From a virus (lineage: Duplodnaviria > Heunggongvirae > Uroviricota > Caudoviricetes), in IMG/VR virus record IMGVR_UViG_2734482772_000014: 11,257 bases of DNA; one strand, given 5' to 3'. Position numbers and translations under genes: made by a program. This document shows, one piece after another, positions 5,073 through 9,842 of this stretch (positions are counted from its first letter, which is position 1; every line of letters begins with the position of its first letter). The notes beneath the pieces are model-generated. The model saw only the letters and a program-made list of their open reading frames with translations. It ran no database searches and was not told where the DNA came from.

Positions 5073-5699
5073 TCAGTGCGCCAGCGGCATTTCAGGCCAG
5101 CCGTTTTCATCCAGTTCAGCTATAAAGCTGTTGTGAAGTTCAGCAAGCGTTTCACGCCCGAACGGGGTCAACTCGCCGCGCTCCGTGTCGATCATGGCCT
5201 GATAAAAAACAATGGCGTTCGCTGTTCCCTGCTCAATGCCGTAGCGCTCAACCATTGCGCCCTCCATGTTGTTAGCCATCGCCAGACGTTCCGCGAACGG
5301 GTAAACCACAATCCCCGCCGTGCCATTGGAGTAAATCGCCACCTGCGATGAAGTGCCGTCAGACTCAGTTACCGTGGTTGTGCCGTTTTCGCGCTTCATC
5401 TCAGAAATGAACGTCGCAGCAATCAGCCAGCGCCACATAGTGACGTTATGCTGCGCGGTGAAGTCGAACCAGCCACGCGCCCCGCCATCAGCAACGGCAA
5501 AATGAATGGCGTATCCGATATCTGGCTTATCGTCGTACTCTCCGGCGTCAAGGCCGTTCACGGCGCTCTCGTAGCTGATAAGAGCAACCTGCTCATATCC
5601 CCCGGCATCATTGCGGGTCATGATATTGACGCCGTGCGGTGTGGCTTCGGCGTGTAATAAGTCGGCATTTCCCGATTTAATGGTCGGTGCGTTGCTCAT
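5073..5699 (-). CDS. Hypothetical protein (208 aa)
   Basis: ATG 5699..5697 overlaps stop of upstream gene (ATGA). No recognised motif. Confidence 0.5.
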   Translation of the reverse strand: MSNAPTIKSGNADLLHAEATPHGVNIMTRNDAGGYEQVALISYESAVNGLDAGEYDDKPDIGYAIHFAVADGGARGWFDFTAQHNVTMWRWLIAATFISEMKRENGTTTVTESDGTSSQVAIYSNGTAGIVVYPFAERLAMANNMEGAMVERYGIEQGTANAIVFYQAMIDTERGELTPFGRETLAELHNSFIAELDENGWPEMPLAH

Positions 5700-5959
5700 G
5701 CGCTGCCCTCCGCATCAATTCTGGCTATATCGACAATCGTCAGGACTTTACTCAGCCAGCAATACGCGATGGCTGCTTGCTCAACTTCGAGGAGTGGTAA
5801 TAAATCGGTCATAACGTGAGCCAGCCCATTGCGGGCGCGGGTCATGCGTTCTGCTGTTCGGTCTGCCAGCGTAAAATCATCCGGGTAAGCCTGCTCGCGG
5901 GATAACATCGCTTCGGCTTCCAGCTCTGCCGGGTGGCGATAGATGGTAGTTATGTTCAT
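5696..5959 (-). CDS. Hypothetical protein (87 aa)
   Basis: ATGA overlap with upstream gene at 5959..5956. No recognised motif. Confidence 0.45.
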   Translation of the reverse strand: MNITTIYRHPAELEAEAMLSREQAYPDDFTLADRTAERMTRARNGLAHVMTDLLPLLEVEQAAIAYCWLSKVLTIVDIARIDAEGSA

Positions 5960-6270: not shown

Positions 6271-6446
6271 GCCGCCACCTCACGAACGCGGGTAATCTGG
6301 ATGTGGGAAAGGCGTTCATTTCTGGCCTGATTTAGCGCCTCAGCTTTGGCGCTGATCGCGCTGCGGGCGTCAACGATATAAACGAACTCGACTAATTCGC
6401 CGCTCCGGGCGGTGGCGCATCCTGCAACACGGAAGTAATTAAGCAT
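6267..6446 (-). CDS. Hypothetical small protein (59 aa from ATG 6446)
   Basis: ATG 6446..6444 preceded by AGGGGG; overlaps the stop of the Icd-like gene by 8 nt (ATGCTTAA). The ORF track's longer version begins at a TTG. Confidence 0.4.
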   Translation of the reverse strand: MLNYFRVAGCATARSGELVEFVYIVDARSAISAKAEALNQARNERLSHIQITRVREVAA

Positions 6447-6631
6447 GTGCGCCCCCTGTGCGAATACGTCCGGCAAAAAAGCAAACGTGATCCCGCGCCA
6501 GAATGCGGCGGGCTTCCTGCTCGGTCTCTGCGGCGATATGGTGAATTTTGGCGGTAATTGTCGGGCAATCGCGGCGAACTGCGGCGATAATCCAGATAAA
6601 TTGCGGTTTTTGGGTAGGGGTAGTAGCCATT
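6439..6631 (-). CDS. Icd-like small protein (63 aa, MATTPTQKPQFIWIIAAVRR...)
   Basis: Strong SD AAGGAGG 7 nt upstream of ATG 6631..6629. Size and position (immediately after a C4/CI-type leader) match Icd of P1/P4-like elements. Family call from memory. Confidence 0.45.
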
Positions 6632-6654
6632 ATGGCAGCCTCCTTTGTGTTTAA

Positions 6655-6845
6655 GGAGTCACCGCATAAGGTTCCAATCTTAATAGTGGCGGTGACGTTA
6701 GCAGGGTTGGAACTACCGGACACAAAGGAAACCGGCCTACGCGAACGTAGCCCCACTAACGCCACCATAGATACAGTACGGGCAAGGCCGCTGATTTGAT
6801 GTGCGTGGTGATCGGACACAAAAAAAGACGCTTTCGGCGTCTGTG
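6655..6845 (-). ncRNA. Putative C4/CI-type antisense-RNA leader
   Basis: On the minus strand, two direct repeats UUUGUGUCCG(A/G)U (plus coords ~6811-6824 and ~6717-6730) are complementary to the Icd-like RBS ACACAAAGGAGG (plus 6641-6653). No protein-coding signal with an SD in this interval. Boundaries approximate. Confidence 0.3.
6819..6842 (-). terminator. Short hairpin + U7 (AGACGC-CGAAA-GCGUCU-UUUUUUU): terminator or leader structural element
   Basis: Minus-strand stem-loop followed by 7 U. The stem is only 6 bp, so it may instead be part of the antisense-RNA leader. Confidence 0.3.
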
Positions 6846-7039
6846 TCGCCCTTAGTGTGTTCGGGGTTCCAATCCCGGTTGCTGATTTTGCAGCAACGCT
6901 TGGACTATAACAGCTTTTCTCTGCTAGGTGGTCATACCAGATAAAACCGTAACCCTTTAAGAGTTTTTCCTGTGCACGGCTCACCATCTTTTTGTTGAGG
7001 GTAAGCGCCTCGCGTACTGGTAACGGAACTCCGGGCGCT

Positions 7040-7085
7040 GCGGTATCAATATCAGGTTTTATAAGGTTGTAAGGGTTAACATTTG
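7040..7085 (-). promoter_or_regulatory. Putative promoter/operator region with twin GTTAAC palindromes
   Basis: GTTAAC-ATTT-GTTAAC at 7065-7080, followed on the minus strand by TTACAA...TATAAA/TATTGAT candidate -35/-10 elements. Sits in the non-coding gap upstream of the antisense leader. Confidence 0.25.
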
Positions 7086-7129
7086 TTAACAGGCTAGCCA
7101 GATTAAAGGCTTCTTTCTGGGCGGCAGGT

Positions 7130-7312
7130 TCATTCAGTATCACGGCGCACCTCCACGAACTCATTAACGAATCTCTCCAAAGGCTGAACACATGGCGACT
7201 GATAGCCCTCGCGGTAAAAGGTCACTCGGTTATGCTCGACGCGCTCAACGGTCACTACAGCCCCGTGCGAATCCTTGTAACGGCTTCCCGGCATCGGATT
7301 GTGGTTACGCAT
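7130..7312 (-). CDS. DUF4222-like small protein (60 aa)
   Basis: SD GGAGG 6 nt upstream of ATG 7312..7310; start overlaps the antirepressor stop by 8 nt (ATGCGTAA). Pattern GSRYKDSHGAVVTV...VTFYREGY...C...LERFVNEF resembles DUF4222 from memory. Confidence 0.45.
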   Translation of the reverse strand: MRNHNPMPGSRYKDSHGAVVTVERVEHNRVTFYREGYQSPCVQPLERFVNEFVEVRRDTE

Positions 7313-8114
7313 GGTTTACCTCCAGACGCTTAGCGAGCCAGCGTTGCGACAGGCGGGTGAGTTCTCCTTTGCGCTGCTCATATTCCATGCCCATATCAAT
7401 TAACGTGATATTGGTGCTTTCGAGATAGGCGAGGTGTTCAAGCTGTGCTGCGTTCATGCTGTCCCGTGGTTCGCCAGTAATGCCATTTGCCTGCGCCCAC
7501 TGCTTCGCCGTCATGCCACCCAGCACGATACGGGCGATCATGTTGCTCTCGTTGCTGTAGTGGCGAGCCTGCGTCTGTTTACCCTGTTCTGCGCGGGCGC
7601 TTTCCAGCGCTACGCACATCGGTTTAAACAGGTTTGCGGCACCGATACGGGCTTTTAGCTGGCGACGATAGCGGGCGGCGATTTCAGGCACGCTACGCTG
7701 TAGTGCTTCCTCGCACTGGATGAAATAACGGCGGATAGCGCGACCCTGCTCGTTGCGTTCAACCATTGCCACTTCTTTAGCCATATCCAGCGATAGCAGA
7801 TAATCATGTTCTATTTGTTGGCGAGTTTTTGCGCTCGCCAGTTTTGGCGTGCTCAAATTTTCAACACGGATAAAATCGGTTCCGGCAATAAAACCGTACT
7901 GGTCAATTCGGCCTTTAATCCAGTTAGTGAAGTCGCGGCCCACCCCCAGCGCCTTATGCAAGGCTCTGGCGCTAACAATATTGGTTTCACGCCCGCCAAT
8001 GCGTCCGGCAATAACGGGAACAATAGCGGCAAAGTCGTCGCCGTTAATTACTCCCGTGTTAACGTTGGGTTGCGGGGCGGCCTCAGAAATTAATCTGCTT
8101 TTTTCGATAGTCAT
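7305..8114 (-). CDS. AntA-like phage antirepressor (269 aa)
   Basis: N-terminal VPVIAG...VSARALHKALGVGRDFTNWIKGRIDQYGFIAGTDF matches the AntA/AntB N-terminal domain pattern (VSAR.LH..L.V...F..WIK.RI..YGF....DF). SD GGAG upstream of ATG 8114..8112. Confidence 0.6.
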   Translation of the reverse strand: MTIEKSRLISEAAPQPNVNTGVINGDDFAAIVPVIAGRIGGRETNIVSARALHKALGVGRDFTNWIKGRIDQYGFIAGTDFIRVENLSTPKLASAKTRQQIEHDYLLSLDMAKEVAMVERNEQGRAIRRYFIQCEEALQRSVPEIAARYRRQLKARIGAANLFKPMCVALESARAEQGKQTQARHYSNESNMIARIVLGGMTAKQWAQANGITGEPRDSMNAAQLEHLAYLESTNITLIDMGMEYEQRKGELTRLSQRWLAKRLEVNHA

Positions 8115-8876: not shown

Positions 8877-9842
8877 CTACCCCTTACCGTTGGCGGCAGC
8901 ACGTAAGTGTCTCAAAATCACATCTTCATTTGTGATTGCTAACGGTGGAATTTCGTCTTTATGAGCCACTATGCAATCCCGCCACTTCTCAGGGCTTATT
9001 TCTTTCTTTTTGCCACGGCATTCATCAGGATACTTTGACAAAAGATATATTGCAGATTTGAAAAGTTTTTCCCTGTTTTCAGCATGTCTCTCGGCATTAT
9101 GGTTGCTATTTTTTATTTCAGGTATTAGTTCCTGTTCTACCGCCATTTCGTATCGTTTTTTGCTCTTAGCTGCGTCAAAACTTCCATTAACCTTTGCGTC
9201 ATGAAGGTATTCTAAATCAGCCTTTGTTATATAAATGTTTTTATCTGACAGGCTACTCAGGTGAATTTGGGAACTTTGCATTTTGAATTTATATAGATCA
9301 CAATCAAATGTTGCTTCAAGTCGCACATATGGTTCTCCACATTCTTGTGAATGATAATGTCGTGTTGTTCTACCGCGTACACGCAACAATCCACATGCAA
9401 TTGATTTTCTTACAATAAAAGAGTTTTTGCCAATTTGTTCAAAAACATTTTTATTGTCGCTGTCTTCAACTGTCAGTGGTTTATGTGCATAAAATAGCTC
9501 ATAAGCACCGCTTTCAGATGCTGGGATATAAACTTCGTTGCTTGCGCTGGTAATAAGAAAAGGAAATGTAAACCTTACTTCTTCTGGGTACATAAGTAAT
9601 AAATCAGTTATAAAATTAGCATCTTTTTTGAAGTGGATGGTGGCATCAGATTCAATGAAATCAAGAAAGTCAGCATAGACATAAAAGTCTATATGTAGTC
9701 TATCTTTCCAATGCCATATATCATCAATTTCACAATTTAATAATTTTGATGCTCGCTCTATCGTGCAGTAGTCCAAAGGTGGAATACCTGATTCCTGCCA
9801 TAAATTTCTATGCACCACAGTTGTTTCATGAGAGTCGTTCAT
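8877..9842 (-). CDS. Orphan hypothetical protein (321 aa), AT-rich cargo between integrase and alpA
   Basis: SD AAGGTGA 7 nt upstream of ATG 9842..9840, stop TAG 8879..8877. Markedly AT-rich versus neighbours (by eye). No Walker A, HExxH or obvious hydrophobic TM stretch; C-terminal third is Lys/Glu-rich. Confidence 0.65.
   Translation of the reverse strand: MNDSHETTVVHRNLWQESGIPPLDYCTIERASKLLNCEIDDIWHWKDRLHIDFYVYADFLDFIESDATIHFKKDANFITDLLLMYPEEVRFTFPFLITSASNEVYIPASESGAYELFYAHKPLTVEDSDNKNVFEQIGKNSFIVRKSIACGLLRVRGRTTRHYHSQECGEPYVRLEATFDCDLYKFKMQSSQIHLSSLSDKNIYITKADLEYLHDAKVNGSFDAAKSKKRYEMAVEQELIPEIKNSNHNAERHAENREKLFKSAIYLLSKYPDECRGKKKEISPEKWRDCIVAHKDEIPPLAITNEDVILRHLRAAANGKG

Follow-up and report, generated by a model that had tools for sequence, protein, structure and literature searches.

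A C4/CI-type antisense-RNA module with an IsrK-like leader RNA ahead of the primase operon of a probable EcCIMP1-like satellite island

The window, by which we mean the whole 11,257-nucleotide stretch of viral DNA that was analyzed (IMG/VR record IMGVR_UViG_2734482772_000014), carries all of its genes on the minus strand. Their order is integrase, a 321-aa ORF, an AlpA-type HTH gene, a 144-aa ORF, an AntA antirepressor gene, DUF4222, the leader described here, an Icd-like gene, five small overlapping ORFs, a P4-family primase, SSB and PerC, with further unnamed ORFs intervening between the primase, SSB and PerC. The first cistron after the leader (6630-6439, minus strand) encodes an Icd/Kil-like protein of 63 aa that matched NCBIfam model NF033153 at 73.2 bits (cutoff 25); the same model also matches P1 Icd and the C-terminus of the P4 ‘cI’ ORF. 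The 5′ part of this gene is C-rich and G-poor, thus rut-like in look, and this composition fits a Rho site. ORF and domain searches identified the downstream operon (6446-2288, minus strand) as the five small ORFs, whose start and stop codons overlap or abut, followed by the primase with its Zn-ribbon, Toprim and D5_N domains.

A previous reading of this DNA from the letters alone (the sequence-only reading) proposed that an RNA-based immunity switch lies ahead of the icd-to-primase operon and named a search with the Rfam C4 and isrK models as the way to check it. That search was positive. When the whole window was scanned at gathering thresholds, three Rfam families scored above their curated thresholds, all on the minus strand: C4 (RF01695, 6772-6685, 82.1 bits vs GA 45), isrK, which is the P4 seqA RNA (RF01394, 6897-6821, 74.6 bits vs GA 50), and the c4-a1b1 motif (RF03163, 6910-6858, 53.6 bits vs GA 46.7), which overlaps the IsrK-like RNA. 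Both this a1/b1 target set and the IsrK-type RNA are therefore positioned 5′ of C4.

The C4 match covered model positions 1-87 of 87 with no non-canonical pair, and the minimum free energy fold was identical to the Rfam consensus structure (-39.3 kcal/mol, z -4.6). In this structure a long closing stem surrounds two hairpins, while the loop of hairpin 2 (b′) and the segment that follows this hairpin (a′) are unpaired. Among 60 distinct sequences 99.9% of the pairs in the C4 stems were canonical, with compensatory changes at 14 of the 26 pairs. Homology with the annotated mature ends of P1 C4 predicts a mature RNA of 79 nt (6766-6688), and a CCA-like CCAC (6689-6686) is found directly after the closing stem. 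In P1 and P4 the 5′ end of the C4/CI RNA is processed by RNase P, and the stable product of this class is about 77 nt long. The IsrK-like RNA, according to Rfam and the fold, consists of two hairpins, a linker and an intrinsic terminator. This terminator, AGACGC-CGAAA-GCGUCU followed by U7 (6842-6820, minus strand), was also detected by a terminator search and marks the 3′ end of the short RNA; it is the hairpin with U7 that the sequence-only reading had placed at 6819-6842.

Two recognition elements are exposed on C4. The first, b′, is the 12-nt loop UUUCCUUUGUGU (6731-6720, minus strand), which was defined by the Rfam structure, the fold and covariation. The second, a′, is GUUCCAA (6713-6707, minus strand), located between hairpin 2 and the closing stem and assigned from the fold and from complementarity. 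The target b2, ACACAAAGGA (6650-6641, minus strand), is a perfect complement of b′ and overlaps the Shine-Dalgarno sequence AAGGAGG of the Icd-like gene; the b′/b2 duplex was calculated at -19.1 kcal/mol and none of 500 shuffled targets was as good. Just 3′ of C4 lies a2, UUGGAAC (6677-6671, minus strand), the perfect complement of a′ (-8.8 kcal/mol, 0 of 500 shuffles as good). The same heptamer forms a1 in the loop of IsrK hairpin 2 (6872-6866, minus strand), also with a perfect match to a′ (-8.8 kcal/mol, 4 of 500 shuffles as good). The fourth element, b1, is ACACuAAGG in the single-stranded linker of the IsrK-like RNA (6858-6850, minus strand) and matches b′ at 8 of 9 positions with one mismatch; this is the second-best b′ site in the leader, but its duplex energy of -9.3 to -10.0 kcal/mol was equaled in 96 of 500 shuffles and is not significant alone. 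The a1 and a2 sites are embedded in GATTGGAACC, which is complementary to the GUUCCAA of C4 and occurs twice (6874-6865 and 6679-6670, minus strand) against 0.04 copies expected. This is the canonical architecture, in which a single antisense RNA carries a′ and b′ as its recognition elements and has two target sets, a1/b1 in the IsrK-like RNA and a2/b2 at the Shine-Dalgarno sequence.

The sequence-only reading had reached the b′/b2 pair by way of direct repeats. The ribosome binding site that it reported, ACACAAAGGAGG, is present at 6650-6639 (minus strand) followed by the ATG at 6630, and CCTTTGTGT in the repeat core is the exact reverse complement of ACACAAAGG. The two upstream repeats, CCTTTGTGTCCGG (6728-6716) and TTTTTGTGTCCGAT (6824-6811), both on the minus strand, are likewise real, although measured from their 5′ ends to the ribosome binding site motif they are 78 and 174 nt away rather than about 85 and 175. 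They share the 10-mer TTTGTGTCCG, with two copies against 0.03 expected and 0 of 200 shuffles reaching two. The upstream repeat nearer to the gene is indeed antisense, as it comprises b′, that is, the loop of C4 hairpin 2 together with its 3′ stem; the farther one is discussed below. The a set (a′, a1 and a2) and b1 were overlooked in that reading.

A putative internal promoter of the extended -10 type, TGtTATAGT (6912-6904, minus strand), was read by eye upstream of the IsrK-like RNA. Its hexamer TATAGT (6909-6904, with the TG at 6912-6911) is placed relative to the a1b1 motif like the -10 sequence (TATAGT) of P1 P1c4/P51b, TATAGT-like hexamers occupy the same position in relatives, and the IsrK model begins about 7 nt past it. 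A sigma-70 consensus scan of positions 6400-7400 found no canonical -35/-10 promoter, and TGtTATAGT is not accompanied by a recognisable -35; we therefore infer the promoter from its homology with P51b and from the extended -10.

To compare antisense and target among relatives, we searched with a pattern that fixed the invariant parts of hairpin 2 and allowed any loop sequence. It retrieved 120 viral contigs, corresponding to 91 unique loci with 32 distinct loops. In nearly all of the 91 loci a complement of b′ (9-10 nt) was found at the same position, directly next to GGAGG with an ATG 6-10 nt further on, and across the 32 loop variants, in about 100 related loci, this SD-adjacent target changed together with the loop. 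The complementary run between b′ and b2 averaged 10.1 nt for cognate pairs, compared to 5.8 nt when loops were paired with the targets of other loci. For b′ and b1 the corresponding values were 7.4 and 5.0 nt, with a perfect match of at least 7 nt in 23 of 31 loop types. The main a′ types, GUUCCAA, UUUCCAC and UUCUCAC, had a matching a2 in 25 of 25, 36 of 36 and 25 of 25 loci, respectively, and were also matched by a1 upstream. Four a′ types were seen in this survey.

A further comparison is with NZ_CP092452, whose leader is 97% identical to that of the window. The differences cluster in a1, a′ and a2, which have switched in concert from AUUGGAAC/GUUCCAA in the window to CGUGGAAA/UUUCCAC. This concerted change is a natural compensatory experiment, and covariation holds for all four antisense/target pairs. 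Related sequence is common, occurring in about 595 of 5426 complete E. coli genomes and also in P1-like, Stx and other phages. A species-level genome scan for the loop of the window returned one contig only, which is probably mislabelled. A phage with the same b′ and a′ pair was sought as a sign of satellite-helper cross-talk, and none was found among phages.

The leader had been described as protein-free in the sequence-only reading, and this proved incorrect. A 250-codon frame (7191-6439, minus strand) spans the entire leader in frame with the Icd-like ATG and has a match to Pfam Phage_ASH (PF10554, E 2e-19). The mechanical ORF opens at 7191; we place the start of this Eta/Ash-like ORF at GTG 7143, preceded by the Shine-Dalgarno sequence GGAGG (7154-7150), which gives 234 codons (7143-6439, minus strand) and an overlap with the DUF4222 stop codon (7132-7130). 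The frame encloses the putative internal promoter, the IsrK-like RNA, C4 and the Icd-like gene, the latter nested as its C-terminal part, and the Phage_ASH match (aa 95-195) coincides exactly with the RNA region. By sequence, this looks like the nested-gene layout of P4 eta/kil, with promoter, RNAs, an in-frame short gene and a start at the end of the upstream gene. RefSeq annotates a 234-aa CDS at this place in a 98% relative, while in a 95% relative and in EcCIMP1 the locus is split into an ‘ash family’ pseudogene and a 64-aa Icd.

Followed upstream from the Icd-like ATG, the frame remains open across C4 in 76 of 99 loci and is broken in about a quarter of relatives. Between the IsrK loop and the ATG the Icd frame is stop-free in 54 of 68 loci, compared to 10 and 1 for the other two frames, and the distance between these points belongs to one mod-3 class in 53 of the 68 loci (10 of 19 distinct lengths). 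The peptide itself behaves otherwise. A dN/dS of about 0.9, crude as it was obtained from ungapped sequences with saturated dS, indicates no amino-acid constraint on the Eta-like frame. Diversity at the three codon positions of the leader (0.26/0.32/0.28) showed no third-position excess, but this is uninformative, as the control icd showed only a mild one. In a BLASTP comparison the Ash translations of the window and EcCIMP1 were not similar (E 0.73), although both loci have C4 at 81-82 bits. The frame of the leader is thus kept open without amino-acid conservation. Since there is no amino-acid constraint and the frame is broken in about a quarter of relatives, translation of the Eta-like frame may be dispensable.

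The arrangement is closely matched by immI of P1/P7, where the order of elements is the same: a1 b1, C4 (b′, a′), a2 b2, icd, ant. P1 C4 scored 68.8 bits, c4-a1b1 was also matched, and the P1 record annotates promoter P1c4, a1, b1, C4, a2, b2 and icd in exactly the layout of the window. The -10 TATAGT is in the same place, a′ is 3′ of hairpin 2 with b′ in its loop, b2 lies over the icd Shine-Dalgarno sequence and the first cistron is Icd-like. The specificity is different: the P1 elements, as read from its sequence, are a1/a2 UUGACAG, b1/b2 GUUAGUG, a′ CUGUCAA and b′ CACUAAC, compared to a′ GUUCCAA and b′ CCUUUGUGU in the window, where b1 is imperfect. Moreover, the gene downstream in P1 encodes the Ant antirepressor, in contrast to the primase/replication operon of the window.

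In that last respect the window resembles P4, where the layout is PLE - seqA - CI RNA (seqB) - seqC - eta/kil - ... - alpha primase and the controlled operon ends in the P4-family primase. P4 matched C4 at 74.9 bits and isrK at 61 bits with the order and spacing of the window, and its immunity operates via CI, seqA and seqC (PMC4825925; PMC3632133). The RNAs of P4 lie within a long ORF (eta, ‘cI’ in the record) whose in-frame C-terminus is Kil/Icd-like (PMC10111431). Previous work described Eta as a long ORF with an internal constitutive promoter, seqA and CI, and Kil as a truncated product of the same frame; full Eta is made only when transcription starts at the late promoter upstream, its translation is coupled to the alpA homologue, and this translation prevents termination (PMC10111431). 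Compared to P4, the window has a shorter terminator-C4 spacer, other upstream genes (AntA, DUF4222) and another a/b specificity, and it has no psu, sid, delta or epsilon. The equivalence of IsrK/C4 and P4 seqA/CI has been stated before (PMC3632133; PMC4825925), and Rfam C4 and isrK matches in Gram-negative PICIs were already reported (PMC10111431).

A third related system is Gifsy-1 of Salmonella (IsrK - orf45/STnc1160 - anrP), where a short IsrK RNA ends at a Rho-independent terminator and read-through gives a processed downstream RNA of about 80 nt on Northern blots, which is complementary to IsrK (PMC4825925). There, however, an antirepressor gene is downstream, IsrK activates, and the C4-like RNA was treated as an ORF (PMC4825925).

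A fourth related element is EcCIMP1, a validated PICI of E. coli that phage Kapi1 mobilises; its locus is described only as ‘Ash family protein’ (PMC11773190). EcCIMP1 has the order int, AlpA-type HTH, 144-aa ORF, AntA, DUF4222, ash/Icd, small ORFs, primase and PerC, with C4 at 81 bits and isrK at 69 bits, and blastn against the window gave 73-93% identity in the antA/DUF4222, icd, primase region and PerC blocks. By this gene order and the identity of the aligned blocks, the island is a candidate Gram-negative PICI. EcCIMP1 differs in its integrase, in its site (tRNA-Thr by proA, as compared to beside der in the 98% relative of the window) and in specificity (b′ CCUUGUACG, a′ CUGCGAA), and its leader is too diverged for blastn. 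We also considered a strict P4-like satellite, as int, the AlpA-type HTH gene and the P4-family primase are present. However, psu, sid, delta and epsilon were found neither in the window nor in an 18.8-kb relative (L001), and this assignment was therefore rejected.

We conclude, with a probability of roughly 85%, that the leader forms a complete P1 c4 / P4 CI-type immunity module which heads the replication operon in an EcCIMP1-like PICI / P4-like satellite island of E. coli. This reading draws on membership in the RNA families, on the fold with a′ and b′ exposed, on complementarity and covariation, the Icd-like first cistron, tight operon packing and conservation of the open frame. The core of the sequence-only reading was correct, as the Rfam matches, the covariation of ribosome binding site and loop in about 100 loci and the tight ORF run from icd to primase all agree with an RNA immunity switch; its details, namely the second repeat and the protein-free leader, had to be corrected, and the system is one already known. 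By sequence, the region is an ordinary, intact copy of the P1 c4 / P4 CI antisense-RNA immunity switch, with nothing conceptually new beyond the P1/P4 paradigm.

Promoter use, RNA processing, action in trans, the involvement of Rho and override by translation are inferred from P1 and P4, and on this analogy the module would operate as follows. Transcripts would begin about 7 nt past the -10 sequence, and most of them would stop at the intrinsic terminator, giving a 77-nt IsrK/seqA-like RNA that carries a1 and b1. Read-through transcripts would contain the C4 fold, and its excision would release a stable RNA, about 79 nt long (6766-6688). Its exposed b′ and a′ would pair with b2, at the Shine-Dalgarno sequence of the Icd/Kil-like gene, and with a2. 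Translation of the first cistron would then be blocked, leading to premature, probably Rho-dependent, termination, and the icd-to-primase operon would stay off. The a1/b1 set on the short leader RNA would provide a second C4 binding site, maybe a target or a decoy, and could also pair in cis. In the induced state, translation of the Eta/Ash-like ORF would require transcripts that begin farther upstream, within the alpA-antA-DUF4222 unit. As proposed for P4 eta, ribosomes that pass through the leader would then override both the terminator and the control by C4. As a counterpoint to this model, an efficient terminator between promoter and C4 would limit the synthesis of C4 from the internal promoter. 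The imperfect b1, the negative consensus scan for a -35/-10 promoter and an Eta-like frame that lacks amino-acid constraint and is broken in about a quarter of relatives count against it as well. In Gifsy-1 the homologue of the short RNA turns downstream translation on and does not support repression, and growth arrest occurred even when the C4-like RNA was expressed constitutively (PMC4825925).

Several other explanations were weighed against this one. The sequence-only reading took both repeats to be antisense copies that pair with the Icd ribosome binding site, and for the second of them this is very doubtful. It is true that UUUGUGU is in both repeats, that the shared 10-mer is unlikely by chance and that the second repeat can form an 11-bp AU-rich duplex of -9.8 kcal/mol with the SD region. 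However, the second repeat, UUUUUGUGUCCGAU (6824-6811, minus strand), is the end of the terminator U-tract plus a conserved post-terminator GUGUC, and it forms the 3′ arm of a short helix with the GACAC just 5′ of the terminator (6847-6843 with 6819-6815), a pairing of about the same strength (-9.6 kcal/mol). The sequence directly 3′ of the IsrK terminator, UUUUUGUGUCCG, has the same T-run and GTGTC in P1 and P4, whose Shine-Dalgarno sequences are unrelated, and 51 of 96 loci, with 10 different b′ loops among them, have this T-run plus GTGTC. Complementarity of the second repeat to the Shine-Dalgarno sequence (at least 7 nt) was limited to 3 of the 96 loci, the window and its two closest relatives, while one locus (L018) has the b′ loop of the window with a different tail. 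The terminator-flanking helix has moderate support (cognate run 5.6 vs 4.5), and its classes covary: GCGAC/GUCGC, GCGAU/AUCGU, GCGCAUA/UAUGCG and GCGCAC/GUGCG. Since it is a conserved terminator tail found with unrelated loops, and its match to the Shine-Dalgarno sequence is limited to one lineage, the second repeat does not represent a further antisense copy; the match is a lineage-specific coincidence of this b′ type. Even less credible is the idea that the leader is merely the coding sequence of an Ash/Eta-family protein and that its RNA-like features are incidental. The Pfam match, the conserved open frame and the fact that RefSeq annotates only proteins here speak for it, but the Pfam match covers exactly the RNA motifs, which three covariance models recognize at 54-82 bits, and the stems stay paired through compensatory changes that alter the peptide. 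The lack of a third-position excess, the dN/dS of about 0.9, the dissimilar translations of the window and EcCIMP1 and the split frame of the 95% relative are also against it.

A different mode of action has more to recommend it, yet we regard it as unlikely. It could be speculated that the module is under positive control of the IsrK type, where the C4-like segment acts mainly in cis, pairing of a1 and a′ silences the read-through transcript, and the short RNA opens it in trans and turns the operon on. The homologous RNAs are present. We take the positions mutated in Gifsy-1 to fit a1/a′ by Rfam consensus numbering. In that system two compensatory mutants, G28A/C162U and G31A/C159U, indicate that IsrK pairs with the segment downstream, and IsrK supplied in trans raised downstream translation more than 100-fold (PMC4825925). 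Positive control, however, leaves unexplained the covariation of b′ with the Shine-Dalgarno sequence (b2) in nearly every locus and the retention of a2, and in the genetics of P1 and P4, C4/CI is a trans-acting repressor (P1 annotation; PMC3632133). The positive-control and repression models can coexist, with IsrK as an anti-antisense RNA. Another possibility is that the module is a decaying relic without present function, as b1 is imperfect, a -35 is absent and this a/b pair is rare, with one species-level genome match and none among phages. This is very improbable: C4 is full length without a non-canonical pair, b2, a1 and a2 are perfect, and related sequence is carried by about 595 of 5426 complete E. 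coli genomes. Since a1, a′ and a2 changed in concert in a close relative, selection must be ongoing.

Beyond the repression module itself, a wider reading can be put forward tentatively, as a possibility that falls short of even odds. The ‘Ash family protein’ locus of EcCIMP1-like PICIs might be a three-layer switch, in which the two RNA genes, for C4 and the IsrK-like RNA, are combined with an interchangeable a/b code and with a frame that is kept open by selection although its amino acids are not conserved; translation of this frame from upstream helper-induced transcripts would cancel RNA immunity. The code comprises at least 32 b′ loops and the four a′ types, and its cassettes are swapped between relatives with 97%-identical leaders. 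If this reading were true, PICIs would have an RNA repressor of replication besides activation by AlpA, and coexistence with other satellites, perhaps also with helper phages that carry C4, would depend on the immunity type. Recognition of IsrK and C4 in such islands offers a ready hypothesis for a silent primase operon and for the avoidance of cross-immunity. The survey of a/b covariation and the open but unconstrained frame are modest extensions of what was known. The annotation can also be corrected, as RefSeq labels the locus as a fused ‘Icd-like’ protein or an ‘ash family’ pseudogene with no RNA marked.

Among the viral contigs carrying related loci (L005-L124), a single b' loop of the C4 antisense RNA was found with differing a' types, and vice versa; the loops TTTCCGATAACG, TATCCTGTGAAG, and TTTCCTTTGTGT each occurred with two a' types. 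The a and b recognition elements thus assort independently.

In EcCIMP1, an experimentally validated PICI (NZ_CP139039), the C4 and isrK RNAs were recovered at 81 and 69 bits, respectively (L125 23717-23944), and the element has an a/b code of its own. A contribution of EcCIMP1 to superinfection immunity has been reported without explanation, and the same paper does not mention the C4 and isrK RNAs (PMC11773190). The b' loop of the window was found in only one species-level genome, L126 (CACSKA010000004.1), which is titled Chryseobacterium sp. 18061. Because this locus has a GC content of 53.5% and is ~80% identical to the primase and AntA regions of the window, the contig looks enterobacterial by sequence, and would then be mislabelled or a contaminant.

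In some family members (L016, L075), the U-tract terminator is absent downstream of b1 and a GGAGGCACUUAGUGCCUCC hairpin stands in its place. Some lineages may therefore make no short IsrK-type RNA. In the window, the bases immediately 5' of the IsrK terminator hairpin (6847-6843, minus strand) are complementary to those right past its U-tract (6819-6815). These flanking arms covary by class, as GCGAC/GUCGC, GCGAU/AUCGU, GCGCAUA/UAUGCG, and GCGCAC/GUGCG (L003, L008, L011, L022, L055, L119, and other related loci). Such a helix requires a transcript that reads through the terminator; it might serve as a processing site or modulate termination. Further downstream, the 5' part of the Icd-like coding sequence (6540-6640, minus strand) is C-rich and G-poor in the transcript, with a plus-strand GC skew as high as +0.42. 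In composition this segment looks like a rut site, in keeping with Rho-dependent polarity once translation is shut off.

In RefSeq the Ash/Icd locus is entered either as a single 234-aa “Icd-like” protein or split between an “ash family protein” pseudogene and a separate Icd of 64 aa. The Pfam Phage_ASH match is exactly the segment taken up by IsrK and C4, and RefSeq marks neither RNA at this locus, which lies at 6439-7143 (minus strand) in the window, at 9058-9762 in its 18.8-kb relative L001, at 1537-2264 in the related L002, and at 23469-24184 in EcCIMP1 (L125). RefSeq gives an 87-aa island ORF (5696-5959, minus strand; L001 10242-10505), which had no match in Pfam or PHROG, the evidently mistaken name “nicotinic acetylcholine receptor subunit beta”. 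Elsewhere in the window, the stretch between the integrase and the ORF that follows it holds an int-alpA RNA motif (RF02996; 9863-9929, minus strand; 60.6 bits against a GA of 35.8).
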